The translations under genes and the position numbers were made by a program. The notes under the pieces were generated by a model, which was not told the DNA's origin, did no database searches, and saw nothing but the letters and a program-made list of their open reading frames with translations. Shown here in pieces: positions 1-50,128 of a DNA stretch of 62,200 bases (within the stretch, counting starts at the first letter, position 1; every line of letters starts with the position of its first letter). Source of the stretch: a virus (lineage: Duplodnaviria; Caudoviricetes); the IMG/VR virus record IMGVR_UViG_3300028189_000014, positions 1-62,200 of that record. One strand, 5' to 3'.

Positions 1-130
1 CGCAGACAAGGACGCTGCGAAAAGACTCCGAGCCATATGGGAGTCAAAAAAACAGGAGCTTAAATTAACACAAGTAACAGTAGCTGATGAAATAGGCACA
101 AGTCAGAGTGCAATTAGTCAGTACCTAAAC
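1..130. repeat. Terminal direct repeat, copy 1 (circular assembly overlap)
   Basis: Matches 62071-62200 except T88 vs C62158 (synonymous GAT/GAC); falls inside the repressor gene. Confidence 0.95.
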
Positions 131-604
131 GGCACCATCGCATTGAATACCGATGCAGTGCTAGTCTTCGCCAAACTATTACAATGTGAGCCAAAAGACA
201 TTCGTCCGGTTTTAGGACGTAAATTGAAGATAAAACAAATACCTACAAGGAGAATACCCGTGGTAAAAAGTTCAACAGGAGCAGTATTGGACAAACACAT
301 AGAGGCTAAGTATATTGGCGAAACTAGCGACCAAGTATATGCAGTACTCATAGACGAACAGAGTTATCATCCACGTATCAAACAAGGAGAATATGTAGTA
401 GTAGACCCCGCAGCTGACATTACACCGGGTGATGAGGTATTAATTGAGACTATAGACTCTGAGTATATAATCAAAACTTATATTCGCGAGGTCGCACAAG
501 GGTATGCAGTTGAGAACATTCTGACAGAATACTCTTCAGTAATAGCACATGATGACATTGTAGCAATCCACCCTATCATCGCTGTTCAACGAGCTAAACT
601 ATGA
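1..604 (+). CDS. cI: CI/LexA-like repressor (HTH + S24 peptidase-like domain), 208 aa when joined
   Basis: In frame with 62048; QSAISQYLNGTIALN helix, EQSYHPRIKQGEYVVVDP and IIKTY S24-like motifs. Confidence 0.85.
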   Translation, partial: ADKDAAKRLRAIWESKKQELKLTQVTVADEIGTSQSAISQYLNGTIALNTDAVLVFAKLLQCEPKDIRPVLGRKLKIKQIPTRRIPVVKSSTGAVLDKHIEAKYIGETSDQVYAVLIDEQSYHPRIKQGEYVVVDPAADITPGDEVLIETIDSEYIIKTYIREVAQGYAVENILTEYSSVIAHDDIVAIHPIIAVQRAKL

Positions 605-816: not shown

Positions 817-1213
817 ATTATTGCGAAATCCAGATCCTACTTCCGCTACCGCTATATATGAATGTCCTGTTTGCAATGAAGAATTTACAGCAATTATGTA
901 TCGTATACAGCACGGTCAAAAATCATGTTCGCAGAAATGCGGGCGCGTCCTATCTAAGGCTAAACAAGTAGGGCGACCGCCTAATGCTGTACTAGGTAAA
1001 GTGTACAGCGAGTTTTCACCTGTAGATTTCAAACGTATTTGTAAGCAATTAAATATAAGCAGAGCTAATCATCACGATAAAGATCTAGTACTTATGTGGA
1101 ACGCTCGTACTGACGAGCTACTTCCTCGACTGGAGGATAAAGGCAAGAAACTAGAGATCTTAGGAGAGAACGAGGTCACGACTATGGATCGTTTAAAGGA
1201 GATATATGGATGA
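806..1213 (+). CDS. Hypothetical protein with zinc-binding motif
   Basis: CPVC...CSQKC. Confidence 0.6.
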   Translation: MRPKLLRNPDPTSATAIYECPVCNEEFTAIMYRIQHGQKSCSQKCGRVLSKAKQVGRPPNAVLGKVYSEFSPVDFKRICKQLNISRANHHDKDLVLMWNARTDELLPRLEDKGKKLEILGENEVTTMDRLKEIYG

Positions 1214-1512
1214 ACACATTAACCCTAACTGAAGCTGCAGCTTATTTGAAGTGCAATGCTGAGACTGTTCGAGTCAAAGCTAAAGCACGGGAAATAAAAG
1301 CAGTAAAAGTTGGGAGACAGTGGGTATTTAAAGAAGAAGACTTGTCATCTTATTTAGATAAGTTGTACGATGGGGATTTTAACACCGTGCAACCACCATG
1401 CAATACTATCAAACGGGGTCTAAATTCATTTGGTACCGATTCACCGCTCCTGACGGACGACGAGTACGAAGATCTACTAAGACCACCGACAAACGTAAGG
1501 CCCAGGAATTAG
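1210..1512 (+). CDS. xis: Excisionase-like HTH protein
   Basis: LTLTEAAAYLK...IKAVKVGRQWVF (HTH_17/Xis pattern); overlaps 5' end of integrase. Confidence 0.8.
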   Translation: MNTLTLTEAAAYLKCNAETVRVKAKAREIKAVKVGRQWVFKEEDLSSYLDKLYDGDFNTVQPPCNTIKRGLNSFGTDSPLLTDDEYEDLLRPPTNVRPRN

Positions 1513-2384
1513 AAGACAAGCATCGTGCCCAACTCTGGGACGAACATAAGCTAGGTACTCAACCTGAAGTTCTATGGAACACAGCATGCGTTCGTTGGGT
1601 TAAAGAAAGTACCAAGACTTCTATCAACGACGATCTCGAAAAACTCCGATGGCTGGATAAATTTCTACGCGATCAGCCGCTTCATACCATTACCACTGAT
1701 TGTATTGAACAGATCATCGAAGCTAAGTTAGCTGAAGGTGTCGCCCCCGCAACTATTAACCGCTACACCACTCTGGTAGGTTCTATCCTACGCAAAGCTC
1801 ACGGTCCCTGGCATTGTCTGAACGAACTTCCACATATACGGAAACTGAAAGAACCCGACAAACGAATACGTTGGATCACGCGAGAACAAGCAAAACTACT
1901 TATTGCCGAGTTACCTCCACACCAAAAAGCTATGGTGGAATTCAGCCTAGCTACGGGTCTAAGAGAATCAAATGTAACAGGTTTGGAGTGGTCCCAGATC
2001 TCCCCTTCTGGGAGTAAGGCATGGCTTCATCCAGACCAGACGAAGAATAGTAAACCGATGTCCGTCCCGTTTAATCCTACAGCGCAACGAGTTGTAGCAG
2101 AACGCCGAGGGATACATTCTGTGTATGTGTTTACTTTTAAAGATAAACGAATACAAAAGGCACACACTGGCGCATTTAAGAAGGCTCTAGTGAGAGCGGG
2201 TATTGAGCACTTCAGGTGGCATGACCTACGCCACACATGGGCGAGTTGGCACGTACAGAATGGTACGCCATTAAACGTTTTACAAGAACTTGGAGGTTGG
2301 AGTAGCTACGAGATGGTACTACGGTACGCTCACTTAGCACCTGACCATTTAGCAGATTATGCGAATAACATTGAGGATAAGTGA
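1398..2384 (+). CDS. int: Tyrosine integrase
   Basis: TGLR, QTKN, HDLRHTWAS, LGGW, RYAH catalytic motifs. Confidence 0.95.
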   Translation: MQYYQTGSKFIWYRFTAPDGRRVRRSTKTTDKRKAQELEDKHRAQLWDEHKLGTQPEVLWNTACVRWVKESTKTSINDDLEKLRWLDKFLRDQPLHTITTDCIEQIIEAKLAEGVAPATINRYTTLVGSILRKAHGPWHCLNELPHIRKLKEPDKRIRWITREQAKLLIAELPPHQKAMVEFSLATGLRESNVTGLEWSQISPSGSKAWLHPDQTKNSKPMSVPFNPTAQRVVAERRGIHSVYVFTFKDKRIQKAHTGAFKKALVRAGIEHFRWHDLRHTWASWHVQNGTPLNVLQELGGWSSYEMVLRYAHLAPDHLADYANNIEDK

Positions 2385-19500: not shown

Positions 19501-22500
19501 TCAATCATTCAGATGCCTCATCGCAGGGATCTGGCTCCAGATAGGGATAGATCTATTAACACCGTTACCACTAAAGATAGAATCTACATGCCCGGCTGTT
19601 GGACCTAATAATCGAGTTGAAGTTTTCCCATTCCATCCTTGTGCATCCATAGCTGAGAACCCTATTTCTAGAGCGCCAAAACCTCCCGATCTACGGAATA
19701 TATTATAGGTGTAATCTCCCATGCCTTGTTTGGCTGTCGGATCGCGTTTACCCCAGTATTGGAGGAGTTCTCGAAGTTCTAGAGCTAAGCCTGCTAGTGG
19801 CAGCATGAAAAATGCGGCTAGAGCTATAGGCACAGACTTCGCAGGTAGGCCGTCTTGTTGTTTAACATTATTCCAGATACCTTCGAGCACCGTATGTTGG
19901 TATGCGTAGAAGAATGTTTTGAGGTGGGTTAGTAAACCAAATCTAGGATCGGACATGAACACCGGGCGCATTGCGTTATTCGGATTTACTACTGATTGAT
20001 CCACAAAAATCCCAATAGCATCTTGAACTCGCTGAGCCAATAACGCCGTATTCGGATCTTGTTCTAAATCCATGCTCATATCCTCTGCACGATTCCATAC
20101 CGGACGACCTAACTTATCCCATTGTTTTACTAAATCTGGGGTTAGTTTGAGCTCTTCTAAGAACTGGGTACTGTTCTCGTTCTGCTCAGTTATGCCATGT
20201 CTGATAATGAAATCCTCAGCAATAGACGCTGACATCACGCGGGACATATCAGTAAACCACTTCTGCCCGTTATATAAGAACAAATTCTTATTGGCTGTTT
20301 GTGCCCATGATGGCGCGGTATCTAACCCATATACTTCCAGCATTGCATGGTTCGCTAAGGTATCTTCTAAGAAGCCCATAGCCCGGTATCGCTGATAAGC
20401 CTCTTTGCGGTTCTTTACGGTACGTGCATACTGATGAAGAGCAGCTGATGCACCCTGAACATCTTTAGCGCGTAAGATAGGCCCTGCTAACTCAGGTATA
20501 GAGGCTACTGCGGTAAAGAGCAACACCATCCAGTTTTCCGCCGCCATAATATTATTCTGGTATTTACGCAACTGCGGATCCATATCTATACCCCGCTGTC
20601 CTAAGATTCCCTGCATCACGGTCTTAACACGGTTACGTGCTGTTGCATCAGGGATTGTGGCAATCTGATCGTTGAGTTTCTTAGCGGCATCGAAATAAGG
20701 CTCATCTCGCCCGTTGTCGACAATCTCGCCAAACAACCTACCGAACTCTGCGTGTCTGATCGACTTACGAACTGAGTTCATAAGTACAAACTCAGGGTCA
20801 GGATGTAGCCATCCGCCTTCGAGAAGATCCGCATTAGGGATCTGCATTAACTTGCCTCGTTTACGAACGGTGTTACCCGAAGGTGCATGTACTACATTTG
20901 GATCTAATGAAGTCTGATCTCGTAATATAGCATTTCGAAAATAGTCAGCATGAGTCTCATTCTCTACGAAATCATACTGCATCAAGAATTCATTAAACGC
21001 TTGTCCTTCCTGCTCTATCTTAGGGTTATTATACATTCGAGGGAAATGGTTAGTTACGCTCTCGAAGAACGGTACGGTGGACCCTAGATATTCAGTGAAT
21101 TTACGATGGACTTTGCGTAGTTCGACAGTCTTAGGATGCACTTCTGCGTCGGTTAACTGCTCATTTTGAACTTCACTCAGTATCTGGTCTTTCAGCCCCG
21201 GCGGTATAGATTTGAGCACTGTCTCATACGCTCCACCCCACTGCCGATCAAGCTGAGCAACTGCGACTAACCAGGGGCGTTGAATAGCACTAGTTGTTTG
21301 TGGACGTAGCCATAGCTTATCAGCAATAGCGTCAGCTCCCCATAACCGAAGCTGTTGATCCGCCGATAACAATGGGTACAGAACTTTCCTAGAACCTGAG
21401 AGAATCGCATTGATTCGAACCCGTGCTTGGTCGCGTAATTGCGGAGTTACTGCATTCAATAACGTTTCACGTAGTCGTTCAGTAAACGAGTCCAGCTCTT
21501 CTTCTGTAGGATTCGTTGTAGATGTGTCCTCTTCAGTTATAGATACAGAGTCTCGTTCATAGGCTGAGGGCTGTTCAAAGCCATAGCCGGGCGAATAACG
21601 TTTAGAGGTAACACCCTGCATATATTCAGAGAATGTTTGGTTCTGCTCAAACCGTCTCGACTTATTCTTATGCATCCGCTCATAAGCCGCTTTTAATCCT
21701 GCTTTGATCTCAGTGAATAATTGCTTCACTTTTTTAGCTAAGGATTGCTTCGTATCTGTAGATTCTGCAAGGAGACTATGTAATCCTTGCATACTGTCAA
21801 GATTACCTGAAGCTGCCCAAGCACTCATCTGGTCAGCGAACCATTCTCGGTAAGCATAAGGCTTATCCCAAGAACCCATCTCTGTTTCATAGGCTTTATA
21901 TAGAGCATCTTGTACTTCTTTCGGGGCTTTATGGAGAGCGTTACGCATAAATGCATGCCCAAACTCATGCCCTAAAGTAATCATCTGTACGGGGGCATCC
22001 CACTTGTTGTTTATATAGATAACGGCATGGTCTTTAAAATACCAAGTAGTCCCCATCTTATTTTTTTGTGCTAACCGACTAGTCATATCAGCTAGAACAT
22101 CTTCATCGACCAACGGGTTACGCAGCTTCGCATTCTGTTTAAGGATGCGTCCTACCGCCTGCATCTCTTTGTATTCTGAGAGAGCTCTTAGTTGGCGCAG
22201 AAGCTCGACTTTTTTAGCTCTCGCATTAGTCCTGACTTTCTTATTTTTTGCGTTTTCACCCTGTATCTTATTAAGTTCTTTCTGAATATTAAGCCATGCC
22301 TCGCCTCTATCTGAACGAACCAACTCTAGTTGTTTGGGGTTTAATACAGTTGACAGATCGTCAGGGAGTGCCAGTTCACTCTGGTCGACTATGTCCTGTA
22401 AGCCGTCGTTGTCAATTAGCATGACGTTGAACTTCGAGTTCGTCGCTTTAAGTAGTTGTACTACCGTGGGGCCTAACAGTTTCGCTGTTTTACCTACCGC

Positions 22501-25500
22501 TTTAACGTGAGGACCTAACATTTTTCCGCCAGCACTCGAGAGCACCGATTGCCAAGAACTACCCTGACTTACTGTACTATTAGGATCTGCTTTGTGGCCT
22601 CGGTTCCTAAATCCTGAGAGAATAAGGTCGCGCCATTGACGTTCGAACTTATGGTCAGACTGCGACACTTCAGTATCGTTATCTACAGTATCTAATATAG
22701 ACTTGTCGCCCGTGACGTAATCTTCGACTCCTTTACCGAACGCCGCGTTTTCACGTTGGACATTGAGCCAGTTGGCTAACTTAGTGGCGTGTTGGTCGAG
22801 TTTTAGAGACTCATTTTCTAGACGAGTAGCTTCTTCGTTTAAAGCGATTTGTTCCTCTGCATCTTGTAGGTTCTCATCATTCGCCTCCTCCCGGAGAGCA
22901 GTCGATTCTTTACGTAATGCCATAGTATACTTATGCACCTCAGCTATATCGTTGGATGTTTTAACTTCTAATTCTGCGCGGTAGCCTCGTTCTAGTTTAT
23001 CGAGTAGATCTATTTGTTTTATGAGGTTATTACTTTCTTCTGGAGTCCTCATATGATTCGGCTTGGCTGATATCTCACCGATCTGCTCTTGAAGAGCTCG
23101 TATCTGCCGTACCTTCACATCGTTATTAGCAATGTTCAGTTCTTGCTGAGTTACCTTATCTAAGGTGAGCATCTGTGTCGCCATTGTTGCGAGATGCATA
23201 TGGGTTTCTTGTAATACAGGATTCCCATCGCTTACCCGTTCATTTTTACCTGTTTCGGGATGGAATACGTACTGCGGCGCGAATGACTGTGCCGCATCTA
23301 ACATATCATTGATATGTTTCTTCAACGCGTAAGACGGATGAGATTCATCAGGTAATTTCTGACGACCTACAACTGCGCGTGACGATATGACTACATCTTC
23401 GTCTGCTGTGCCGTACTGGGATTCAGCTTTTTGGTCAACCTCTCCGGGTCTATGAGGCCCTAAGTCTGCTAGTCGCTTCGCTGCTTCGCGCGTATACTCC
23501 GCACGGGTTACAAGATCCTGCCCATAACCTAAGTTATCCCAGCTACTCAAAGCCGCATCTTTGCGGGCTTGGTCTGTAGTATTTAAATCAACCTGTTCGG
23601 TTATTTCAGGATCAGTGTTTACGTCTTGAACTTCTGACAACTTCTCAAGCTGCTCCTCCAAGAACATCATTGTTATCTTATCGTCAGGATCGAGTGATTG
23701 GCCTTCTTCTATATCCCGATACATTTTAAAGTACAGCTTCTCCCGCTCAGCTGTATATCGCTGACTCAACTCTATAGCTGCATCACCACGCTCATCTTTG
23801 TTAACCTCTTTATCTCTGAGTTTAGCGTGTAGCGCTGTCTCTGTTTCGTTCCTGAGTTCACTAGCTTGGAGATAAACGGTCTTCTTGAAAAAAGCCTCAC
23901 GCGCAGACGCTACCGTTGTTGATCGACGTTTTGACTCTGTTGATACTCCGGTCTCCTCATTTACATGGCTGACCATCGAATCGACAGTTCGATCCCCTGC
24001 TTTAGTCTTATAATTCCATATCCGACGATTATCCCAATTACTAAGATCTCGCCCTAGTAGATCTTCGTGTTCAATGCCTTTATCGCCATACTTTTCTGGA
24101 TTGCGACGAATTATTATTTCTAAAGATCGGATCAACGCTTCATATACATCAGCGGCTGACGGTTGGAGAATGGGCATTTTCTGCCCCCGCTCTTGCGCTA
24201 ACTTGAGCATCCCTAATCTAACTAACTCGATAGTGTCGTAGTTCTTGCCGTCTACAGTGACTATCTCAGCATCGCGGTCCTCTAAGCTATTCGCTTTTTT
24301 GTTGCCGCTGACTTGAGCTTTACGTAATAATGCTACTTCGCCAAACCGAACACCTTGGAAATTATTAGAATCCGTAGGGTACACAGAGAGGTAATGACTC
24401 TTCGGTATCGGATCGCCTTTGTAATCTTTTTCATCAGAGTATTCAGCGACTTCGATCCCTATAGTATGGTCAGGAAATTCTGCCTGTAGAGCCATCAGTT
24501 TCCGCTCTAGAGATTCAGACGGTTGTCCGATTTTCTCTCCTTTACTATGAGCTGCATAGGGCTTGCCTCTATCTTCATGGATCTCGTTCTGCCCTATGAT
24601 GAGTACTTCGGGAATACTCATCTCAAAACCACCACTCTCGAACACGTCAAATGCTCGCCACGTAGTACCCATTACTTTAGAAGTAGAATTGTTTAAGGCT
24701 TTATTAACCGCAACTGCGATTAAATCTCCTGCGATAGCATCGAATTTATCTTTGAGGGCTATATTATTTCCCTCCTCATCGAAACCAAAAGAAGGCATGT
24801 CCTCTGCCTTACTTTGTTTTTTCACGAAGGCTTCTTTCTCTTCCTTCGTTTTCAGAGAACTGTATTCAACAGCAGCTTCGCGTAATTTTTGTACTTTCGA
24901 GTACGCCTCAGTAGCCTTAGCTGACATTTCATCTAATGCAGCTTTGCGCCCCTCGGGAGTTGATGCTTTACCTAAAGCCTCAGCACCTTTCTCAAGAGAA
25001 TCTTTTAGCGCGTCATTAAATTCATTAAACGATTTAGGACTATCTGAATAGGCTTCTTTTACTTTGTCGACAAAGCTCTTAATCGTGTCGCCGTAAGCTG
25101 TGTGATCTGTGTTCGCATCATCCCTATGGGTGTTAAGCTGTTCGGTAAAGTTACCTATCTCGTTTGATGCATCTACAACTTTTTGATGAGATTCACCTAT
25201 TTTCTTAGCTGCCCAGTCAACACCTTGTCCTACTTTATGAGCACCGTATTGCGTAGCGGCAACGGGCGCAGATCCACCAAACGCCATGCCACCGCCAGCA
25301 GCGAAACCTTTGGAGAAGTCTTCTATAAGGCGTTGCCCGTTCTCGGGTGAGAATATGTCGTATTCGGGTTTATTAGCTTTAATCGCTAAGAAACTAATTA
25401 TAGATTGGATGTCTTCAGTGAATCCTTCTACCCCTGCAGTTATACCTACGCCTTTCGCCACCGTAGCGATAGTTTCCATGACGGTTTTAGGGTTCTTGCG

Positions 25501-26496
25501 CGCAACTTTAAAAACTTGTTTTAGTGCAGCTGCGACACCAACTACATCTACGGCAGCACCGGGGACTCCTGCAAGTAATGCCGCCGCCCCTGCTTTGTCA
25601 GGAGCAACGCCTTCTCTGATCTGATCTTTATAATACTCACCGACCATTAACGGATAGCTAGCTGTAGCCGCACCTACTAACGCTCCTTTCTTCTTCGCTT
25701 CGATTCGTAGTCCTCTAGCGAGCGCTTTCTTTGCTCCCGAACTTAACTTATCTACTAATTTCTTAGGATCTGTTTTGGGGTCAAAATTCTTAGCTGCTTG
25801 TTTTCGTGCAGCTTTTGCGTTGATGCCTAGACCCGTTTTAGATGGGTGGACATCCCAATCGAATATCCTCCGTATTTCATCGTGATATTTCTTAGGTACT
25901 TTATCTATTACTTTACTAACGGTTTTATAGGACGCTTCTAGATACTTAGGTCCTCTAAGCGTAGCACCTATAATACCTCCTGCGACCATAGGAACCATTT
26001 GAGCGAAATTCTCAGTTATCGCTTCAAGTATGTATGTGCCCGCCTTTGCAGGATCCCAGTCAACATCATATATAGATTCAATTTCAGCCGGATAATAACT
26101 AGCTTTATCTGCGTATTCTTCGCTGGTCTCCCGCCCAAAATCTGCTGCGGATTCAAATCCTGTAACCTCTGCAGCAGCTTCAATAGCTGAGCCTACATTA
26201 GAAACCGCGTTGTTAACCCCTCTGAGTATACCTCTCTGTGCGGCAGACTGATGCTGAAGATTCCCTTGACGTATTCGATTGTTATGCTGCTCGTCCCTTA
26301 TCGCTTTATCGTAGCGTAGGATATCCTCATCATTTAAAGCGTCTATGTCGAACTTCGGCGTATCTGCTGCGGTCTTTGCTACTGCTTGAGCATCTTTTTT
26401 TTCCTGTTCAGATACAGGAATATTCGATGCTTGTATCTTCGCCGATAAAGCTAAAATCTCGTCGTCAGATAGCGCATTTATGTCGAATCTGCTCAT
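19501..26496 (-). CDS. Giant internal virion / DNA-ejection protein with zincin-like motif
   Basis: 2331 aa, follows smaller ejection-type genes; hydrophobic Ala/Gly segments near N-terminus; LGHEFGHAF (HExxH) and REWFAD. Confidence 0.7.
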   Translation of the reverse strand: MSRFDINALSDDEILALSAKIQASNIPVSEQEKKDAQAVAKTAADTPKFDIDALNDEDILRYDKAIRDEQHNNRIRQGNLQHQSAAQRGILRGVNNAVSNVGSAIEAAAEVTGFESAADFGRETSEEYADKASYYPAEIESIYDVDWDPAKAGTYILEAITENFAQMVPMVAGGIIGATLRGPKYLEASYKTVSKVIDKVPKKYHDEIRRIFDWDVHPSKTGLGINAKAARKQAAKNFDPKTDPKKLVDKLSSGAKKALARGLRIEAKKKGALVGAATASYPLMVGEYYKDQIREGVAPDKAGAAALLAGVPGAAVDVVGVAAALKQVFKVARKNPKTVMETIATVAKGVGITAGVEGFTEDIQSIISFLAIKANKPEYDIFSPENGQRLIEDFSKGFAAGGGMAFGGSAPVAATQYGAHKVGQGVDWAAKKIGESHQKVVDASNEIGNFTEQLNTHRDDANTDHTAYGDTIKSFVDKVKEAYSDSPKSFNEFNDALKDSLEKGAEALGKASTPEGRKAALDEMSAKATEAYSKVQKLREAAVEYSSLKTKEEKEAFVKKQSKAEDMPSFGFDEEGNNIALKDKFDAIAGDLIAVAVNKALNNSTSKVMGTTWRAFDVFESGGFEMSIPEVLIIGQNEIHEDRGKPYAAHSKGEKIGQPSESLERKLMALQAEFPDHTIGIEVAEYSDEKDYKGDPIPKSHYLSVYPTDSNNFQGVRFGEVALLRKAQVSGNKKANSLEDRDAEIVTVDGKNYDTIELVRLGMLKLAQERGQKMPILQPSAADVYEALIRSLEIIIRRNPEKYGDKGIEHEDLLGRDLSNWDNRRIWNYKTKAGDRTVDSMVSHVNEETGVSTESKRRSTTVASAREAFFKKTVYLQASELRNETETALHAKLRDKEVNKDERGDAAIELSQRYTAEREKLYFKMYRDIEEGQSLDPDDKITMMFLEEQLEKLSEVQDVNTDPEITEQVDLNTTDQARKDAALSSWDNLGYGQDLVTRAEYTREAAKRLADLGPHRPGEVDQKAESQYGTADEDVVISSRAVVGRQKLPDESHPSYALKKHINDMLDAAQSFAPQYVFHPETGKNERVSDGNPVLQETHMHLATMATQMLTLDKVTQQELNIANNDVKVRQIRALQEQIGEISAKPNHMRTPEESNNLIKQIDLLDKLERGYRAELEVKTSNDIAEVHKYTMALRKESTALREEANDENLQDAEEQIALNEEATRLENESLKLDQHATKLANWLNVQRENAAFGKGVEDYVTGDKSILDTVDNDTEVSQSDHKFERQWRDLILSGFRNRGHKADPNSTVSQGSSWQSVLSSAGGKMLGPHVKAVGKTAKLLGPTVVQLLKATNSKFNVMLIDNDGLQDIVDQSELALPDDLSTVLNPKQLELVRSDRGEAWLNIQKELNKIQGENAKNKKVRTNARAKKVELLRQLRALSEYKEMQAVGRILKQNAKLRNPLVDEDVLADMTSRLAQKNKMGTTWYFKDHAVIYINNKWDAPVQMITLGHEFGHAFMRNALHKAPKEVQDALYKAYETEMGSWDKPYAYREWFADQMSAWAASGNLDSMQGLHSLLAESTDTKQSLAKKVKQLFTEIKAGLKAAYERMHKNKSRRFEQNQTFSEYMQGVTSKRYSPGYGFEQPSAYERDSVSITEEDTSTTNPTEEELDSFTERLRETLLNAVTPQLRDQARVRINAILSGSRKVLYPLLSADQQLRLWGADAIADKLWLRPQTTSAIQRPWLVAVAQLDRQWGGAYETVLKSIPPGLKDQILSEVQNEQLTDAEVHPKTVELRKVHRKFTEYLGSTVPFFESVTNHFPRMYNNPKIEQEGQAFNEFLMQYDFVENETHADYFRNAILRDQTSLDPNVVHAPSGNTVRKRGKLMQIPNADLLEGGWLHPDPEFVLMNSVRKSIRHAEFGRLFGEIVDNGRDEPYFDAAKKLNDQIATIPDATARNRVKTVMQGILGQRGIDMDPQLRKYQNNIMAAENWMVLLFTAVASIPELAGPILRAKDVQGASAALHQYARTVKNRKEAYQRYRAMGFLEDTLANHAMLEVYGLDTAPSWAQTANKNLFLYNGQKWFTDMSRVMSASIAEDFIIRHGITEQNENSTQFLEELKLTPDLVKQWDKLGRPVWNRAEDMSMDLEQDPNTALLAQRVQDAIGIFVDQSVVNPNNAMRPVFMSDPRFGLLTHLKTFFYAYQHTVLEGIWNNVKQQDGLPAKSVPIALAAFFMLPLAGLALELRELLQYWGKRDPTAKQGMGDYTYNIFRRSGGFGALEIGFSAMDAQGWNGKTSTRLLGPTAGHVDSIFSGNGVNRSIPIWSQIPAMRHLND

Positions 26497-39473: not shown

Positions 39474-39486
39474 CCACCAAGTAACT

Positions 39487-39702: not shown

Positions 39703-39729
39703 CAACTCTGGTCTTAAGAACAGGGTTGA

Positions 39730-40220: not shown

Positions 40221-40250
40221 TTTTAAATCCATTTAACTAGGAGAAATACC

Positions 40251-40412: not shown

Positions 40413-40419
40413 GTTGAAC
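40389..40419 (+). promoter_or_regulatory. Hairpin element H2 (31-bp exact repeat, copy 1)
   Basis: GCTCAGCTCGC-TAC-GCGAGACTGAG-TTGAAC. Confidence 0.6.
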
Positions 40420-40437
40420 CCATAAAAGGAGTATGTC

Positions 40438-40575
40438 ATGTTCACCATCAAATCAATACAGCTAGGTTATATATTTGCCTACAGAATCTGGGATGTAAAG
40501 GCTAACCGCCCTGTATCCCCATTGTTCGCTGAGCTTGCACAAGCTGAGCGTGAATTGGCTATCTTAGAATTATAA
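40438..40575 (+). CDS. Small hypothetical protein (45 aa)
   Basis: AAGGAG RBS; MFTIKSIQLGYIFAYRIWD... Confidence 0.55.
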   Translation: MFTIKSIQLGYIFAYRIWDVKANRPVSPLFAELAQAERELAILEL

Positions 40576-40592
40576 GCATAGCTAATAACCAT

Positions 40593-40622
40593 GCCTGCAC
40601 ACTCCGGTGTGTGGGCTTTTTT
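40593..40622 (+). terminator. Intrinsic terminator
   Basis: GCCTGCACAC-TCCG-GTGTGTGGGC followed by T6. Confidence 0.7.
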
Positions 40623-40646
40623 GTATCAACAAAAGGAGTACTAACC

Positions 40647-40835
40647 ATGTCAAATACTAAGCGTTTCTTAGAACACATCGAAGACCAAGCCCGCCACATG
40701 AGCAAAGCAGAGCTCATGGCAGAGTATCCATACACGGGCGTAGCCCAGTTATGGGACGAGGTCAATGGACCTCAGCAAGCTGAGTTACCGAACAGCTACG
40801 CACCATTCGACGATGCAAACCACCCCGAATCGTAA
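40647..40835 (+). CDS. Small hypothetical protein
   Basis: AAGGAG RBS; MSNTKRFLEH... Confidence 0.6.
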   Translation: MSNTKRFLEHIEDQARHMSKAELMAEYPYTGVAQLWDEVNGPQQAELPNSYAPFDDANHPES

Positions 40836-40837
40836 TA

Positions 40838-41014
40838 ATGGACTACGCCATAACTTTGTTCCTAGGGCTCACAGCTCTGGGGACAGGCTTCGCCGGGTAC
40901 GCAGTCTTATCAACCACAAAACTTACCTTGGCTACTGGCTCTGTTGCAGCCCTTAGCCTCTTATCCAGCGTCCTGAGTTGGACGTTGTTCTTTATATCGT
41001 ACGTGACACTTTAA
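40838..41014 (+). CDS. Small membrane protein (58 aa)
   Basis: MDYAITLFLGLTALGTGFAG..., two hydrophobic segments. Confidence 0.5.
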   Translation: MDYAITLFLGLTALGTGFAGYAVLSTTKLTLATGSVAALSLLSSVLSWTLFFISYVTL

Positions 41015-41093
41015 ACCCATTTAGGGGAGGGGACTTTTTTGGGTTATTTAGCCTATTTTCTCCCCCTCTCAAACCTACACAGGAGTATAGAAC

Positions 41094-41294
41094 ATGCAAA
41101 TAATCAACTTATTGATAACTATCTGGAAATCGCTTCCATGGTATACCAAAGCCCTAACTATGTTCTTCTGGGCAACCCTCATCATAGCCATCTATACAGG
41201 GCATATCACCCTCTGGCTAACCTACTATTTCTACTACCTAATCATCACATTCTGCATTGGTCTGTATATAGGCTATAAGGAGGCACACTCATGA
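41094..41294 (+). CDS. Small membrane protein
   Basis: AGGAG RBS; two TM-like segments. Confidence 0.6.
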   Translation: MQIINLLITIWKSLPWYTKALTMFFWATLIIAIYTGHITLWLTYYFYYLIITFCIGLYIGYKEAHS

Positions 41295-41749
41295 GCACTA
41301 AAAAGAACGCATCAATGGTCGGGATCATATCAGCCCACAAAATACTACTATGCAGCACTAAGAAAAATCCAGAGTTCTGGCAGCCCGTAGGTGGTGGGCA
41401 GCAAGGTCATGAAGACCCACGTAATACTGCTATGCGAGAACTATGGGAAGAAACGGGCGTTGTCCTAGGCGACACACAGCTACTAAAAGAACGTTGTGTG
41501 CACCCCTCTAAAACAGGGGGGAAAGTTACTTTCTACACAGTAGAATACTCCGTCGCTTCTAGGTACTCAGAATATGAACACTTAGAAGATTTTCTCGAAG
41601 AACAGGACGAAATAGCAGATTTTAAATGGGTTACACCCGCTGACGCACTAGCAAGGCTACCCATGATGTCTGCCACTAAGCTGTTTCTCTGGCAACTACG
41701 TTACGAAATTTTATGTGACCAAATAGCTCAGCTCGCTACGCGAGACTGA
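41291..41749 (+). CDS. Nudix hydrolase
   Basis: Nudix box GGQQGHEDPRNTAMRELWEETGV. Confidence 0.9.
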   Translation: MSTKKNASMVGIISAHKILLCSTKKNPEFWQPVGGGQQGHEDPRNTAMRELWEETGVVLGDTQLLKERCVHPSKTGGKVTFYTVEYSVASRYSEYEHLEDFLEEQDEIADFKWVTPADALARLPMMSATKLFLWQLRYEILCDQIAQLATRD

Positions 41750-41756
41750 GTTGAAC
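41726..41756 (+). promoter_or_regulatory. Hairpin element H3 (31-bp exact repeat, copy 2), directly before RNAP
   Basis: Identical to 40389-40419. Confidence 0.6.
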
Positions 41757-41798
41757 TACAAACTATGTGATTAATCAATTAAATTGGAGTACATCATC

Positions 41799-43469
41799 AT
41801 GGAAGCTCAGATATTAGAGTATCTAAATAAGCAATACAGCTATGAGAGCAAAGCGCTCCGTATAGCTAAGTTGAAAGAGCGTCAGCTAACACCGCTAGCC
41901 ATCTCGGCTAAGCTATGGACGGCACTCTGCCGCACCCAGCAGGACAAAACTGCAATACAGAACGTAGCCACACGCCTAGGTACTAGCCTCGGCTATACGG
42001 ATCAGCTCGACGCAGTTAAAACTGGCGCTGAGCTGTTGGCAATCTGTCAACATCAAGGATGGTACACGCTTGATATGACCCGTTATGGCACCTATGTGCT
42101 ACCTAACTTACCTAAAGAAGCGTTGATAAAATCCAACTTCCCCACCTTCAAGCCCAACAAATGGAGTAGTAACCATAATGGTGAAGACTCTATTATATTA
42201 GGTGGCGGGATGAAACATCACAATCAAGCACAGTCGTATGACGTGCTTAATATCCTACAGAATATAGAATGGTGTATAGATACCGAGGTTCTACGTTATG
42301 AGAAGAACCCGAAAGCTAAGCACCACTCCCAGAGAACCCGTGCTGACTTCAATGCTATATATAACGACTTAATAGGTCGTGGCTTCTACTTCAAATGGCG
42401 TTACGACATGCGCGGGCGTGGATTCATCCACAGTTATTTCTTAAACTTCCAAAGTCATGAATATGACAAGGCTCTGTTATCACCTCGTAAAAAGGTAATT
42501 ACCGAGAACCTCGGTAACCTTAAGATAGCCGTAGCTAACGAAGCAGGGCACGATAAGCTCCTGTTCGAAGAGCGTATAGCCTGGTTCGATGCACAGCTTG
42601 AGAAAGGCTTCAATACCGAAGAATTCAAATACCCCATACTAGGACGCAAAGCATTACGAGCCTACGCCCTAGCAGAACAGGGACTGCCTAGTAATTACAT
42701 GATGGGGCTAGATGCTACTGCCTCGGGCTTACAGATCATGGCGGCATTAATTGGCTGTAAGATCACAGCGAAAGCCTGCAACTTGATCTATTCAGGCACA
42801 CGAGAGGATCTGTACACACTCGTAGCTGATACGATGAATGCTGAGCTATCACCAGCTGACTATGTAGACCGTAACATGGTGAAAGATCCTGTAATGACTC
42901 ACTATTACAATAGTATCAAAGAACCACGTAAAGCGTTCAACGATGCACAGCTACAGGCGTTCTACAACGCATTGGATGGGCTCTGCCCCGGTGCCGTAGA
43001 CGTTATGGATACGATCAACGCCTTCTGGAATAAGCGGACACTTGAGCACAGTTGGACTCTCCCTGACGGGCACCGCTCAGTTGTCCCTGTCATCGAAACA
43101 GTAGACAAACGTGTTGAGGTAGATGAGCTGAATCACCGTCGCTTCGCTTATATCTACAAAAAGAATATGCCATCACGTAAGTCAACGTCCTTAGTGCCTA
43201 ACATTATTCACTCGGTCGATGCCTACGTTGCCCGTGAGATGGTAAGGCGCTGTCCGTTCGACATTGTGCATATTTTCGATTGCTTCTACTTCTACCCAGA
43301 TAATATGGACGAAGCCTCACGTATATACCGTGAGATCCTAGCAGATATCGCACAGAGCAATCTGTTAGCTGACATCTTATCGGAAATTAGCGGTAAGAAT
43401 ATAAGCATTGCTAAAGATAGTGACGATTTACACATCGACATCCTTACTAGCAAATATGCGATTTCTTAG
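41799..43469 (+). CDS. Single-subunit DNA-dependent RNA polymerase (T7/N4-RNAPII superfamily), ~556 aa
   Basis: DMRGR, motif A GLDATASGLQ, motif B RNMVKDPVMTHYY, PNIIHSVDA, motif C HIFDCF; GGAG RBS before ATG 41799. Confidence 0.9.
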   Translation: MEAQILEYLNKQYSYESKALRIAKLKERQLTPLAISAKLWTALCRTQQDKTAIQNVATRLGTSLGYTDQLDAVKTGAELLAICQHQGWYTLDMTRYGTYVLPNLPKEALIKSNFPTFKPNKWSSNHNGEDSIILGGGMKHHNQAQSYDVLNILQNIEWCIDTEVLRYEKNPKAKHHSQRTRADFNAIYNDLIGRGFYFKWRYDMRGRGFIHSYFLNFQSHEYDKALLSPRKKVITENLGNLKIAVANEAGHDKLLFEERIAWFDAQLEKGFNTEEFKYPILGRKALRAYALAEQGLPSNYMMGLDATASGLQIMAALIGCKITAKACNLIYSGTREDLYTLVADTMNAELSPADYVDRNMVKDPVMTHYYNSIKEPRKAFNDAQLQAFYNALDGLCPGAVDVMDTINAFWNKRTLEHSWTLPDGHRSVVPVIETVDKRVEVDELNHRRFAYIYKKNMPSRKSTSLVPNIIHSVDAYVAREMVRRCPFDIVHIFDCFYFYPDNMDEASRIYREILADIAQSNLLADILSEISGKNISIAKDSDDLHIDILTSKYAIS

Positions 43470-43484
43470 TGGACTCCGTCCACT
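43468..43484 (+). promoter_or_regulatory. Hairpin element H4
   Basis: AGTGGAC-TCC-GTCCACT perfect stem; template loop C-GGA-G. Confidence 0.45.
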
Positions 43485-43534
43485 TAAATGATTTTTAACC
43501 GAGCTAAATAGCTCACAAATACTGGAGAAATACC

Positions 43535-43954
43535 ATGGCTAACAAAGCAACTACTACCTATGACGACGAAACCTATTTTTTCTTACAACTAGGCAACCAA
43601 CGTGTACGTTTTGTACCTGTTGAAGCCTTTGCGGGGACTATCACCGAAGCTGGTGTGTATAACTTCCTTAGCACTAAAGCCATCGTTGGTGTAACAGCCC
43701 CACGTACCAGCGGTAAGAATGCAGGTAAACTTGGCTTTACTGTTAACGGCACCCAAGGCAAACGCACTAGCGTTATTGGGTTCATTAACTTCTATGAAAG
43801 CACAGCTTGTGCTACCTCTACAGATACCGAGCTTGGCGCTGAGAAAGGCAAGCTAGAAATGCTGTTGAAGAAAATGAAACGTACTGACGTAACTACACCT
43901 TACACTGATGAGCAAAATGAGTCATTCGCAGATGACTTAGGCTTAGCAGCGTAA
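43535..43954 (+). CDS. Hypothetical protein, candidate RNAP accessory / ssDNA-binding factor
   Basis: Directly after RNAP, GGAGAAATACCATG RBS, aromatic/basic core with acidic tail. Confidence 0.5.
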   Translation: MANKATTTYDDETYFFLQLGNQRVRFVPVEAFAGTITEAGVYNFLSTKAIVGVTAPRTSGKNAGKLGFTVNGTQGKRTSVIGFINFYESTACATSTDTELGAEKGKLEMLLKKMKRTDVTTPYTDEQNESFADDLGLAA

Positions 43955-43967
43955 CTTTTACCTCTTG

Positions 43968-43990
43968 GGGAGCTTCGGCTCCCTTTTTTT
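43968..43990 (+). terminator. Intrinsic terminator
   Basis: GGGAGC-TTCG-GCTCCC followed by T7. Confidence 0.85.
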
Positions 43991-44009
43991 ATGCCAGGAG
44001 ATTAATCGA

Positions 44010-44297
44010 ATGAGCCAATACAACTACCCAACGACAGCATTGCTATCCAAAGCTCAACACGTACGCCTTAAAAATTACGCTGCAAGTGAAGGTATTAGCG
44101 TCAGCAAGATACTTAGAAGTTATGTAGATGCCATATGTCCCCGCCCTTCTCCAGGACGAAAGAGTGGGATTAAGAATTATCTATATGGACAAGAACAGCC
44201 TGTAAAGAGCCCTACCAAAGCTATTAAAGATATTATGGACGCAATCGACCCCAATCAATACGAAATCGTGTTGATAAGAAAAATTCACCAGCCATAG
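44010..44297 (+). CDS. Ribbon-helix-helix-like DNA-binding protein
   Basis: TTALLSKAQHVRLKNYAASEGISVSKILRSYVD; AGGAG RBS. Confidence 0.65.
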   Translation: MSQYNYPTTALLSKAQHVRLKNYAASEGISVSKILRSYVDAICPRPSPGRKSGIKNYLYGQEQPVKSPTKAIKDIMDAIDPNQYEIVLIRKIHQP

Positions 44298-44302
44298 GAG
44301 GC

Positions 44303-44431
44303 TTGTTTATACAAGTAAAACTCGAGCACGACGGCGTTGTACTTGATGTGTTCGATAAAGATAATGACGTAATTAAAAGCCACTATAAATATTATAGTGA
44401 CATGGGACTAACAGCACCAAAGGAGGTGTGA
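44303..44431 (+). CDS. Small hypothetical protein (TTG start)
   Basis: AGGAGG then TTG; 42 aa filling the gap. Confidence 0.4.
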   Translation: MFIQVKLEHDGVVLDVFDKDNDVIKSHYKYYSDMGLTAPKEV

Positions 44432-44432
44432 G

Positions 44433-44672
44433 ATGAGCCAACGTGATTGGGACGAATTAGAAAAAGAAAAACAGAATATCATAGACGGTAAGAGCATTAC
44501 ACATCTTTGGACCGTGCAGGATATTTTTCAGCAGAGCGAAAATCATTCCGAAGACGGAAAAGTCTGCATTGAAGAAGTTGATGCTTTGCGAATACTAGAA
44601 GCTATCAGATGGCCTGATCCTGATTACAATGACTATGACATAATCAGTGACATGATATCGGACTGCACTTAA
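44433..44672 (+). CDS. Small acidic protein (MSxxDW paralog family)
   Basis: Similar to 45033-45248 and 60580-60864. Confidence 0.6.
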   Translation: MSQRDWDELEKEKQNIIDGKSITHLWTVQDIFQQSENHSEDGKVCIEEVDALRILEAIRWPDPDYNDYDIISDMISDCT

Positions 44673-44684
44673 TGGAGGTGAAAG

Positions 44685-44987
44685 ATGGATATGAACTATG
44701 ATATTTACCCCCCAGAAGATTATGAATACTCATCATTAGATGAACTAATAGACTTATGGGCTTCAACCCCGTGGAATTTCTACATTCATTGGTATAGCTA
44801 CACAGACTGCGGCGTTACCATTACTATGAAATTCGGTTCTGATGAAGAACTCTGTAACGATGAGTTACCTCATAGAGATTGGGATACCTCAATTACTAAA
44901 CTTAAAGTCAGTTCTATTATTGAAGGGTCTTCAGCAGAAGTACCCGGCTATTGGATAGATAACCCTAATGATTTTTTAAACTTCTAA
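44685..44987 (+). CDS. Hypothetical acidic protein (possible -1 extension to 45046)
   Basis: GGAGG RBS; T TTA AAC heptamer just before stop. Confidence 0.6.
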   Translation: MDMNYDIYPPEDYEYSSLDELIDLWASTPWNFYIHWYSYTDCGVTITMKFGSDEELCNDELPHRDWDTSITKLKVSSIIEGSSAEVPGYWIDNPNDFLNF

Positions 44988-45032
44988 ACGTCGTAGAAGA
45001 AGAAGCTAACAACCTATGGGAGGAAACAAATA

Positions 45033-45248: not shown

Positions 45249-45256
45249 GAGGAACG

Positions 45257-45633: not shown

Positions 45634-45641
45634 GAGGTCGT

Positions 45642-46436: not shown

Positions 46437-46895
46437 ATGGATAGCCAACAGGAGTACCTACGCAACAGGGTCTACGAAGAGCTACTCCGTATAAATGCTG
46501 GTAGACACCTAGTGTCATACCAATTATTCCCTAAAGCAGGAATCATTGAGCTAGATTGCAGAGGAGATCATGTTTTTAGAGTAAATGACTTAGGGTACAT
46601 GACCTACACCTTAGGGCTGCCTATCAACCAGAAAGCAGAACGTATCTTGAGGATAAAAAACAGCATGCTTGCAAATTACCAACGCAATCAGGAAGGGAAA
46701 TGGTTGTGGAGCTATGAAGACACACACCATGATATTTTAAACGTACTAAAGGAAGGAGTAACCACCAATGAAACCCAGCGAACTGACCGAGCTCTTAAAA
46801 GCCTCGCTTATAAACGTGACCTTGAAACCCGGCGAATCCCGTCTATCAGCAATGGTATGGGGCGCGCCTGGCATCGGGAAATCACAGATCATTAA
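46437..46895 (+). CDS. Hypothetical protein (3' end overlaps ATPase gene)
   Basis: ORF track only. Confidence 0.45.
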   Translation: MDSQQEYLRNRVYEELLRINAGRHLVSYQLFPKAGIIELDCRGDHVFRVNDLGYMTYTLGLPINQKAERILRIKNSMLANYQRNQEGKWLWSYEDTHHDILNVLKEGVTTNETQRTDRALKSLAYKRDLETRRIPSISNGMGRAWHREITDH

Positions 46896-47799
46896 ACAGC
46901 TAGCAGAAGAACACGACTATCGCTTTTTAGATATACGCCTATCTCAGATGGGTCCCGAAGACATGCAGGGGGTACCTTTTGTAGTCGTCGAAGATTCTGA
47001 AAAACGAACTGCTTGGGGTACACCACTTATGTACCCTAAAGAAGGTGACAAAAAAACCCTGATGTTCTTCGATGAAATCACCCATGCTCCACCTGCAGTA
47101 CGCAAATCTGCCTTTCAGATCATCCTAGACCGACAAATAGGACAACATAAATTCCCTGAAGACACAGTTATTGTCGCAGCAGGAAACCGCGTTGAAGATC
47201 GCTCCGGTGCACAAGAAATGGAGTTGGCTCTAAAGAACCGCTTTATGCACTGCGACTTAGAGGTAGATCGTGATGATCTAGCAAGTTGGTGGGTGAGGAA
47301 CGATAAAGACTCTAGAATCTTATCATTTCTACGTGCCGCACCGCATCATATACATGATATGCCTGAAGGTGTCACAAGTGAGAACGCTTTCCCGTCGCCA
47401 CGTACATGGGATTTCGCTTCGCAAATTCTCAGGACTGTCCCTAAACACCTACGCCTACAAGCTTTGAAAGGAACTGTCGGAACAGGTCCTGCTAAAGAAC
47501 TCGAAGTACACTTACGTACAGAACTCCCCGATATGGAGAAACTATTGGCAGAACCGTGGAGTTTCAAACCGCCGGAAGACCGTTCAGTTATGTACGCTAT
47601 AGCCAACGCGCTTACAACTTACGTAACTCGAGCTACGATACAAGGTTTCTGTGATATTGCAGAGCAATTAGCTTCGATCAACCACCAACAGGATTTTGCT
47701 GTTACTATGACGCGTGACTTGTTCATTAACAAACCTGAACTAACTCAAACCTCAAGCTATATTGCTTGGGCAGCTAAACATAAACATTTGGTGATTTAA
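46768..47799 (+). CDS. MoxR-like AAA+ ATPase
   Basis: WGAPGIGKS, FFDEI, AAGNR, ALKNRF, FPSPRTW. Confidence 0.9.
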   Translation: MKPSELTELLKASLINVTLKPGESRLSAMVWGAPGIGKSQIIKQLAEEHDYRFLDIRLSQMGPEDMQGVPFVVVEDSEKRTAWGTPLMYPKEGDKKTLMFFDEITHAPPAVRKSAFQIILDRQIGQHKFPEDTVIVAAGNRVEDRSGAQEMELALKNRFMHCDLEVDRDDLASWWVRNDKDSRILSFLRAAPHHIHDMPEGVTSENAFPSPRTWDFASQILRTVPKHLRLQALKGTVGTGPAKELEVHLRTELPDMEKLLAEPWSFKPPEDRSVMYAIANALTTYVTRATIQGFCDIAEQLASINHQQDFAVTMTRDLFINKPELTQTSSYIAWAAKHKHLVI

Positions 47800-48961: not shown

Positions 48962-50128
48962 ATGGCTGCCCCACGTAGAATTAAAAAAGCAAAAAACGTT
49001 AAGCAATACGACCGTATGGCTAAAGCCCGAACACGTCTTATCCTCGACGAACCTTTTTTTGCCACCTTACTCCTTAAACTCCATTTAATAGAAGACACAT
49101 CCATCCCTACTGCCGCAACTGATGGCAGAGTAATTCTATATAGTCCTGAATATACAGAGACGATAACCGACGCAGAATGCGTAGGGCTATTAGCTCACGA
49201 ACTCATGCATTGTGTGTTCTACCATATGACGCGTCGAGGTCATAGGACTCCCTATAGATATAATTTAGCCGGAGACTACGTAATAAATCCCGGAATTACA
49301 GCATCAGGTATGACTTTGCCCCCCGGGGCCTTGGACGACCCTCAGTATTACAACATGACCACAGAACAAGTATACGACTTACTCCCCGAGGACGAGGAAG
49401 GCAATAACCCGATTGGCCCTGATGGATTTCCTCAAGATTTCCCACCAACTGACTGGGTGTTCGATGACAGCAAAGCCGCTATGTCCCCAGCTGAGAAAAG
49501 CCGCGTTGAAGAAGAATGGGAGCTTAATGTACAAGAGGCCGTACGAAATGCAGAAGCTGCAGGAAAAATGCCTGCAGGACTCGAATCTATTATTGAAAGT
49601 TTTGGTAAGCCCCAAGTTAATTGGCGCGCTGCACTACGACGATTCTTCACCGTGTATTCAAAACGCGACTATTCATGGAGCAAAGTAAAACGCCGTTTAA
49701 TCTCACAAAATATTTACCTTCCAAGTCTACACTCAGAAGATTTAGACAATCTCGTTATCGGCGTTGATACCTCTGGTTCTGTCTCCGATGAAGAACTTGC
49801 CTTATTCAGCGATGAAATCAACAGCATACTCGTGAATTTTACAGCTACTGTCACTGTAATCTATTGTGATTCCGTAATACAAGAAGTTGAAACTTTTGAA
49901 ACTGATGAATTACCCAGAGCTTTAAGTGATGAATTCCCCGGACGAGGAGGTACTAGACTTACACCTATTCTTGAATATATAGAGACCATGAATTTAGATC
50001 CTAGTTGCATGGTGTATCTAACCGATGGAGGGATATGGGACAACCCACCTGCCCCATCATACCCTGTGTTGATCGTAACTACAGACGAAGAAATTTCAAT
50101 TGGCGAAAACATAAAAATGGAGCGGTGA
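48962..50128 (+). CDS. Metallopeptidase + vWA protein (DUF2201-like)
   Basis: TAATDGR, LAHELMH, MIDAS DTSGS, GRGGT, YLTDG. Confidence 0.9.
   Translation: MAAPRRIKKAKNVKQYDRMAKARTRLILDEPFFATLLLKLHLIEDTSIPTAATDGRVILYSPEYTETITDAECVGLLAHELMHCVFYHMTRRGHRTPYRYNLAGDYVINPGITASGMTLPPGALDDPQYYNMTTEQVYDLLPEDEEGNNPIGPDGFPQDFPPTDWVFDDSKAAMSPAEKSRVEEEWELNVQEAVRNAEAAGKMPAGLESIIESFGKPQVNWRAALRRFFTVYSKRDYSWSKVKRRLISQNIYLPSLHSEDLDNLVIGVDTSGSVSDEELALFSDEINSILVNFTATVTVIYCDSVIQEVETFETDELPRALSDEFPGRGGTRLTPILEYIETMNLDPSCMVYLTDGGIWDNPPAPSYPVLIVTTDEEISIGENIKMER

Follow-up and report, generated by a model that had tools for sequence, protein, structure and literature searches.

The window analysed here, a virus record of 62,200 bases (IMG/VR record IMGVR_UViG_3300028189_000014, Caudoviricetes) taken at its full length, contains an open reading frame (ORF) for a protein of 556 amino acids (aa) that we identify with great confidence, from its sequence and modelled structure, as an RNA polymerase (RNAP) of the T7 family, predicted to be catalytically competent. 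Judged by its sequence matches, the protein is the counterpart of gp15 and gp16, the two subunits of RNA polymerase II (RNAPII) of phage N4, joined in one chain, and it is a member of a large, so far uncultured clade of single-chain RNAPII-type enzymes of 530-610 aa, most of which come from N4-like phages that package a giant virion polymerase as well. The best overall explanation, to which we assign a probability of about 0.6, is that it is a small single-chain RNAPII residing in a temperate podovirus related to phage KPP25 and without a detectable virion RNA polymerase (vRNAP).

The polymerase ORF is the sole match to PF00940 in the window (75.1 bits against a cut-off of 22, E 6.5e-21). Its longest version starts with TTG (41784..43469, plus strand, 561 aa in the ORF listing), and the ATG at 41799, preceded at about 9 nt by GGAG as read from the sequence, gives the 556-aa protein. 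The original prediction, made from the sequence alone, had recognised DxRGR, motif A, motif B and PNxIHSxDA in one chain of about this length, and all of them can be located, as DMRGRG (residues 203-208), DATASGLQ (305-312), RNMVKDPVMTHYYN (358-371) and PNIIHSVDA (467-475), followed by HIFDCF (491-496) in motif C. In a MAFFT alignment with the polymerases of T7, phiKMV and Syn5, N4 gp16 and 125 RNAPII-type rows, D203/R205/G206/R207 correspond to T7 D421/R423/G424/R425, R358/K362/Y370 to T7 R627/K631/Y639, H471 to T7 H784 and D474 to T7 D787. The catalytic aspartates, the alignment of which had been singled out as decisive, are likewise in register, D305 with T7 D537 and D494 with T7 D812. Both of these, the Arg, Lys and Tyr of motif B and the DxRGR motif show no variation in 26 fused forms. 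Two departures from the usual consensus had also been pointed out, YN after motif B and IFDC in motif C, and both are present. At the site of T7 G640, occupied here by N371, 75 of the 125 RNAPII-type rows have N and 40 have G; N being the commonest residue there, YN is the family norm. The phenylalanine of IFDC (F493, at the site of T7 H811) is by comparison rare, occurring in five of these rows. The polymerase gene, F493 included, is under strong purifying selection, with a ratio of nonsynonymous to synonymous substitution rates (dN/dS) of 0.040-0.070 over 556 codons when the window is compared with its 96% and 91% relatives.

The relationship to N4 RNAPII is evident from several comparisons. 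The polymerase matches phrog_2051 (E 4.3e-101, best stretch residues 240-487) and phrog_2166 (E 8.9e-38, residues 3-362), the families to which N4 gp16 and gp15, respectively, are assigned, and also phrog_414. In a sequence search of the PDB, residues 241-556 match N4 RNAP2 (gp16; 6dt7_B) with an E of 3.6e-40 and residues 99-233 match N4 RNAP1 (gp15; 6dt7_A) with an E of 0.006, and T7 RNAP is found with an E of only 2.5e-8. The suggestion that this is a fused RNAPII-like enzyme is thus borne out by two consecutive stretches of one protein, and with one continuous ORF covering both N4 subunit parts the enzyme is not a heterodimer of the kind by which N4 RNAPII is defined.

The model predicted by AF2 from an input of 26 fused homologues has a pLDDT of 90.5 and a pTM of 0.85. 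It resembles T7 RNAP both by Foldseek (E 3e-23, TMq 0.76) and by VIA-align (Z 36.8, root-mean-square deviation (rmsd) 3.2, 437 residues aligned), and when the whole model is aligned by the latter program, residues 1-556 run along T7 81-883 (3e2e_A; 548 aligned, rmsd 4.2). The same program gives Z 34.6 for yeast mitochondrial RNAP (550 aligned), Z 32 for human mitochondrial RNAP and Z 21.5 for the N4 mini-vRNAP; for residues 236-556 against N4 gp16 (6dt7_B), it gives Z 32.1 with an rmsd of 2.3 and 31% identity over 317 aligned residues. Most of the N-terminal domain of T7 RNAP had been supposed to be lacking, but according to the model it has only shrunk, with residues 1-193 standing for T7 81-411. 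The fingers are about 80 residues shorter than in T7, and a beta-hairpin is retained at residues 432-456, the site of the T7 specificity loop. The enzyme is, as modelled, a uniformly trimmed T7 fold with its N-terminal domain present.

A search of 1.84 billion cluster representatives returned 2580 relatives of the polymerase at E ≤ 1e-3, the closer of them mostly 540-616 aa long, 41-50% identical and without informative names; at least 196 relatives are found in IMG/VR. A single ORF extends across both halves in 58 of the 76 loci having a complete C-terminal part, and the split forms break at query residues ~235/241, i.e. at the gp15/gp16 boundary. We inferred trees from the gp16-like part with FastTree (128 rows) and with IQ-TREE (61 hand-picked rows, LG+G4, 'quick' analysis), from which near-duplicates (5-mer overlap > 0.55) had been excluded, together with rows that begin at query residues 150-228 or lack the whole of the C-terminal part. 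The window polymerase branches within a clade of 57 rows, 54 of them fused, in the former tree (support 97), and within a clade of 26 rows, 25 of them fused, in the latter (SH-aLRT 96). In both trees its sister within the clade is the polymerase of G025, a metagenomic relative of the window phage, and both group it with RNAPII-type rows, apart from T7, phiKMV and Syn5. The profile search, the trees and the structure prediction, all proposed beforehand as checks, hence agree in placing the enzyme with the RNAPII type in the T7 fold. At least 8-9 switches between fused and split forms are needed on the trees, four of them forced by well-supported branches, and the rows closest to the T7-like outgroup are fused and lie in a weakly resolved part of the tree.

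Fusion as such is frequent in nature, and in uncultured N4-like phages with a virion RNAP it prevails over the split form. The impression that it might be special to the phage in question did not hold up: besides the predominance of single-chain loci, the vRNAP profile phrog_2206 is matched, among 24 RNAPII-carrying viral records searched, by all 23 outside the window clade (E 9e-18 to 0), nine of which have a split RNAPII and 14 a fused one. Among cultured phages, the best matches to the window polymerase and to a fused relative are in two to four pieces and come exclusively from N4-like phages. With a 101-aa query for the junction, the best 40 of 118 cultured-phage records are single-piece only in T7-like phages (~40 kb), with one exception, a partial record of 1.9 kb. 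No cultured phage with a single-chain RNAPII-type enzyme emerged from these searches. We found no paper describing a single-chain RNAPII-type enzyme, or such an enzyme in a temperate phage, in a literature search from which subscription journals were mostly absent. As an observation in its own right, a contig from a Hyphomicrobiales metagenome-assembled genome (MAG) carries an RNAP homologue in three ORFs (L012, 9656-13416; query residues 35-310, 311-468 and 468-556) lying about 1 kb apart, as might be expected if introns, homing endonuclease genes or the like had been inserted into the polymerase gene.

Among known systems, N4 RNAPII is the closest to the window polymerase, providing the best sequence and structure match, the same PHROG families and the same reduced T7 architecture, and in both phages the gene lies upstream of gp24- and gp25-like genes. 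The N4 enzyme differs in consisting of two chains (269 + 404 = 673 aa), in having YG and H where the window polymerase has YN (after motif B) and F (before the motif C Asp), and in about 55 extra residues of gp16 (263-318) before motif C; as the window polymerase is missing the latter, its spacing before motif C is like that of T7. N4 moreover has a vRNAP, gp1 and gp2, none of which was found in the window, whereas the window phage has lysogeny genes. Pseudomonas phage LUZ7 similarly combines an RNAPII-type enzyme with a nearby-encoded small protein, Drc, that is unrelated to gp2, but its RNAPII is a heterodimer in a phage with a vRNAP and Drc is basic, with an isoelectric point (pI) of 9.16 (PMC7145618). 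T7 RNAP is, like the window enzyme, a single chain with the same fold and all four motifs aligned, and some T7-like phages carry integrases (one is annotated beside the Syn5 RNAP); yet with 883 aa T7 RNAP is about 330 residues longer, and the overall make-up of the window phage is not that of the T7 group. The N4 mini-vRNAP (2PO4) and mitochondrial RNAPs share the polymerase fold and require helper proteins (PMC4496689, a 2015 review, table 1). The window polymerase is about half their size, is not embedded in a giant virion protein, and has no PPR or N-terminal extension.

The absence of a recognisable vRNAP, reported in the original prediction, was upheld by every search we made. Not only PF00940 fails to match anything else in the window: the phrog_2206 profile has no match there at E ≤ 10 (a threshold at which three of 14 control genomes match), and tblastn with the N4 mini-vRNAP yields none. 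In the close relative G001, phrog_2206 has one weak match (27 bits, profile positions 309-570). The place that the vRNAP occupies in the N4 gene order is taken in the window by a virion structural protein of 2331 aa, which matches only PHROG virion structural families; it has no PDB match by phmmer, no Pfam polymerase signal and no significant BLASTP similarity to N4 gp50. Comparison of three such giant proteins with ten vRNAPs by hhalign gave probabilities of at most 0.3%, in an alignment of low diversity (Neff 1.3), at which a remote relation is possible. We therefore rejected the idea, on the strength of the phrog_2206 and hhalign results, that this protein is a hidden or polymerase-less vRNAP. 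A weak Peptidase_M78 match surrounds an HEFGH zinc-peptidase-like motif near residue ~1500, and the central part falls into unnamed viral clusters with a weak LPD1/LPD5 polyvalent-protein lead (0.88, Atlas). The protein also displays Gly/Ala-rich hydrophobic stretches near its N-terminus and long charged helical regions. N4 gp1 and gp2 have no BLASTP match at 1e-4 among window ORFs of at least 60 aa.

Judged by its genes, the phage itself belongs with the KPP25-like podoviruses and carries lysogeny genes, which encode an integrase, an excisionase-like protein and a cI-like repressor. It falls outside the Schitoviridae, having neither a detectable vRNAP nor an N4-type capsid and portal. By BLASTP, the window shares with KPP25 (a Pseudomonas phage of Kochitakasuvirus) the capsid (49% identical; KPP25 is the nearest in this protein), portal (39%), terminase (39%), and DNA polymerase, primase, exonuclease and helicase (31-37%), and both have a giant virion protein. 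KPP25 differs in having no match to the polymerase or to the gp24-like ATPase, and its annotation shows no integrase over the 50 kb examined. Common to the window and N4, by the same criterion, are only the RNAP, the gp24 and gp25 homologues and a weakly matching terminase (E 2.9e-5), with no match for capsid or portal. As a gp24-like ATPase occurs also in G027, G029 and G030, relatives without the RNAP, the gp24/gp25-like pair is not part of an RNAP cassette. The integrase and cI repressor noticed in the original prediction are indeed there, with PF00589, HTH_17 and HTH_3 plus Peptidase_S24 all represented (table 1).

The record is rated 99% complete and labelled linear, but positions 62071-62200 repeat 1-130 with one mismatch. 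Given this 130-base overlap of its ends, the genome, of ~62.07 kb, is either circularly closed or permuted, and the record is not that of a prophage with host flanks. The repressor gene in fact begins at 62048 and crosses the overlap of the contig ends; its G025 homologue is 213 aa long. No tRNA genes occur in the window.

Table 1. Positions of the polymerase gene, its candidate partner and other features in the window.
Feature	Position	Strand	Evidence and remarks
Single-chain T7-family RNA polymerase, N4 RNAPII type (predicted)	41799..43469	+	556 aa
gp15-like part of the polymerase	residues ~1-235		
gp16-like part of the polymerase	residues 241-556		
Acidic protein of unnamed family, candidate RNAP cofactor	43535..43954	+	139 aa, pI 5.5
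31-nt element, interrupted 10-bp hairpin with 3-nt loop	41726..41756	+	directly upstream of the RNAP ribosome-binding site
31-nt element, identical second copy	40389-40419		perfect repeat D11
TATAAGCAnnGCT, example sites	38834-38850, 40571-40583, 43400-43412, 48009-48021, 53159-53171, 58649-58661		
TATAAGCAnnGCT, example sites	31958-31970, 35104-35116	-	
cI/LexA-like repressor	2..604	+	Pfam HTH_3 + Peptidase_S24
HTH_17 (excisionase/AlpA-like) protein	1210..1512	+	PF12728 E 1.6e-12
Tyrosine integrase	1398..2384	+	phrog_1 E 7e-64; PF00589 E 1e-28
Class 3 lipase domain protein	8836-9600	-	PF01764 E 2.9e-25; among tail/virion genes
Virion structural protein	19501..26496	-	2331 aa; PHROG virion structural families only
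MoxR-type AAA ATPase, N4 gp24 homologue	46768..47799	+	phrog_1297; AAA_5; BLASTP 1e-37
DUF2201_N metallopeptidase-like + VWA-like protein, N4 gp25 homologue	48962..50128	+	Pfam; BLASTP 1e-34

Directly downstream of the polymerase gene lies a gene for an acidic protein of 139 aa, which we regard as the best candidate for a helper of the fused enzymes. Its family, searched for with a profile hidden Markov model iterated three times on the fetched RNAP loci, is present in 42 of 88 such loci, in 41 of these on the same strand as the polymerase (in L044 the family member is on the opposite strand, 6.7 kb away), and 32 of the 42 members lie 66-860 nt from it. In N4-like contigs the gene precedes the polymerase gene, and in G025, L011 and the window clade it directly follows the latter. 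None of the 18 loci with two separate subunit genes has it, nor does L085, and the only 'split' rows that do, L012 and L086, have the polymerase broken elsewhere than at the gp15/gp16 boundary. The members have a pI of 4.4-6.6 and are under purifying selection (dN/dS 0.09-0.22). Among 5.8 billion proteins the family corresponds to 35 unnamed clusters; no match was found in cultured phages, in Pfam or in PHROG. The AF2 model of the protein has a pLDDT of 84.2 and no Foldseek match in the PDB at E ≤ 0.001. Prediction of a complex with the polymerase scored 0.00 (mark 0.32) and, having been run without controls, has no bearing on binding either way. Binding by N4 RNAPII is restricted to single-stranded DNA, and the enzyme requires gp2 (PMC4496689), the pI of which is 5.20 (PMC7145618); according to both publications the genes for gp2 and Drc are among the early genes near the polymerase. 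From gene linkage, we put the odds that the 139-aa protein is a cofactor of the polymerase at about even.

On the reading that we prefer, a small single-chain RNAPII in a temperate KPP25-like phage, the polymerase gene and the 139-aa gene would have entered the lineage together from N4-like phages, at a time when the window clade and G025 had not yet diverged, and an origin of the polymerase from the N4-like clade is indeed likely. With no polymerase injected, and a prophage having no virion at all, transcription of the gene must begin with the host RNA polymerase; we accordingly consider it probable that its expression depends on the latter, which would produce the earliest transcripts, the RNAP mRNA among them, upon infection or induction. 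The phage enzyme would then transcribe part of the genome, by analogy with N4 probably the rightward replication genes. It is probably unable on its own to find promoters on duplex DNA and may be recruited to opened DNA by the 139-aa protein, for which N4 RNAPII with gp2 and LUZ7 RNAPII with Drc serve as models. More tentatively, and with rather less assurance than for the reading as a whole, the middle-transcription unit of N4 may be regarded as a portable cassette, consisting of a polymerase of ~540-560 aa and an acidic helper, that was captured by a temperate podovirus lacking a vRNAP and works there outside the three-polymerase cascade of N4, transcribed early by the host enzyme.

Several observations weigh against parts of this picture. 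The 139-aa profile has no PDB sequence match at E ≤ 0.1, the only hits being designed trefoils at E 0.49-0.61; compared with N4 gp2, it reaches a probability of 0.05%; and the best VIA-align score of the model among 48,161 chains (Z 4.8, 2k49) is not above background. We did not find an integrated copy flanked by host DNA, relatives being present only on MAG contigs whose flanks were not checked, so that it is the gene content that speaks for lysogeny. G025 is syntenic with the window, has an integrase of its own and carries a member of the 139-aa family beside its RNAP, but its polymerase is 49% identical to that of the window and its core genes 66-79%, which makes a replacement possible instead of common descent. 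Apart from these points, the phenylalanine F493 stands beside the catalytic Asp where T7 and the other 120 of the 125 relatives have His, and the sole strongly over-represented upstream motif of the window is as common in a relative without the polymerase. (Between the tail fibre gene and the integrase, G025, L181 5976-9858, has two large ORFs of 319 and 581 aa that by eye, from their translations, look like ribonucleotide reductase subunits.)

The polymerase is absent from all four cultured relatives identified by the capsid and, among 13 long metagenomic ones, is present only in G025. The other 12 have the same replication and structural genes, and six of them are at least 93% complete and possess the same DNA polymerase, primase, exonuclease and helicase; the polymerase may thus be accessory. 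It could have a narrow job, making replication primers or R-loops, or serving a few genes when the host polymerase is shut off or is blocked by a defence system. T7-family polymerases do prime replication in mitochondria and in T7, and the gene resides in an early region whose gene content varies between strains through gain and loss. Such a role is nevertheless rather unlikely in our view: the strong purifying selection argues against it, as does the maintenance of a two-gene unit with the 139-aa protein as in N4-like phages, where the homologue is the middle transcriptase (PMC4496689), and priming has no direct support. It should be added that one of the relatives without the polymerase, G026, also has an integrase and a repressor.

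We regard as less probable still that the enzyme is an autonomous T7-style polymerase which, without any cofactor, reads the motif TATAAGCAnnGCT in duplex DNA and transcribes the middle and late genes. This semi-palindromic motif (wider consensus about aaTATAAGCAnnGCTaATA) occurs, with at most one mismatch, 22 times in the window against 1.67 copies expected, a count reached in none of 100 shuffles. Most copies precede a start codon by 15-35 nt and point in the direction of the gene, on both arms of the genome and in front of the capsid, portal and terminase genes too. The motif is frequent in the window-clade records G001 (25 copies), G038 (20) and G039 (18) and in G025 (9) and nearly absent from other capsid relatives, and the beta-hairpin kept at the site of the T7 specificity loop would also fit promoter recognition of this kind. 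Against this stands G026, which is 100% complete and syntenic and has 29 copies of the motif but no RNAP: nothing in it matches the RNAP profile or PF00940 (E ≤ 1), nor did hhalign of its largest unknown early protein give a match. The motif is, moreover, unchanged in G025 although the polymerase there is only 49% identical, and N4 RNAPII, the closest characterised enzyme, does not bind duplex DNA (PMC4496689). TATAAGCAnnGCT is thus probably read by something other than the polymerase, and we rejected it as the RNAP promoter in view of the copies in G026. Finally, a decaying relic that no longer polymerises, as the change of His to Phe in motif C and the rarity of F at this site might suggest, is highly improbable given dN/dS values of 0.04-0.07 among three lineages that all have HIFDCF, an ORF uninterrupted in the window, L006, L007 and L008, conservation of the other catalytic residues, and a confident model.

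Returning to the small single-chain RNAPII and how its gene may be expressed, a scan of positions 38000-48500 for sigma-70-like promoters gave eight sites against 20.7 expected and no usable early promoter. The 31-nt element preceding the polymerase gene, at most a lead, folds as a DNA hairpin and is kept upstream of the gene in L006 and L008, where an additional hairpin (6 bp, 3-nt loop) stands behind it; its core pattern is confined to loci of the window clade. Each of its two copies in the window overlaps the final codons of a different ORF, and the two ORFs share their terminal residues. One of the neighbouring genes, encoding a NUDIX protein (41291-41749), overlaps a strain-variable stretch (41283-41725). 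Contigs from the sequencing runs X8 (DNA) and X20 (RNA library) join 41282 to 41726, so the NUDIX gene is missing in some strains, with the hairpin element at the end of the deletion. The runs were compared as contigs, the parts not covered in X20 being uninformative and the small shares in X18-X20 providing no evidence of habitat; the phage is, however, found in several seawater metagenomes. X8 contigs also skip 40223-41724 and 44301-45027. RNA-library contigs from one run cover 43002-43191 and 43640-43884, in the polymerase and 139-aa genes, respectively; this is a weak hint of their expression, as such a library can also hold DNA. Elsewhere, at 59729-61464, there is a run of small genes, each with GGAGGTGAGCGATGA in front (repeat families D1 and D2), one more copy of which is located at 44415-44442.

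N4 RNAPII has so far been treated as a heterodimer that accompanies a virion-packaged polymerase, and the 2015 review states that all but two of the species with a vRNAP homologue also have a heterodimeric RNAP (PMC4496689). Among uncultured marine phages with a vRNAP, however, RNAPII-type enzymes made as one chain of 530-610 aa are common, and the fused enzymes travel with an unnamed small protein not found beside the two-gene enzymes. In at least one lineage the two occur in a phage that carries lysogeny genes and has no detectable vRNAP. Nature thus provides a test of the requirements of an RNAPII-type enzyme for finding promoters, and a case of a phage polymerase wired into a programme that must also start from a prophage, without a virion protein. 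The clade, in addition, offers biochemists very compact T7-family polymerases, also as tools for in vitro transcription. Should the notion of a portable cassette prove true, it would rank with the smallest T7-family transcription systems in nature and would break the reported link of virion RNAPs with heterodimeric RNAPII.

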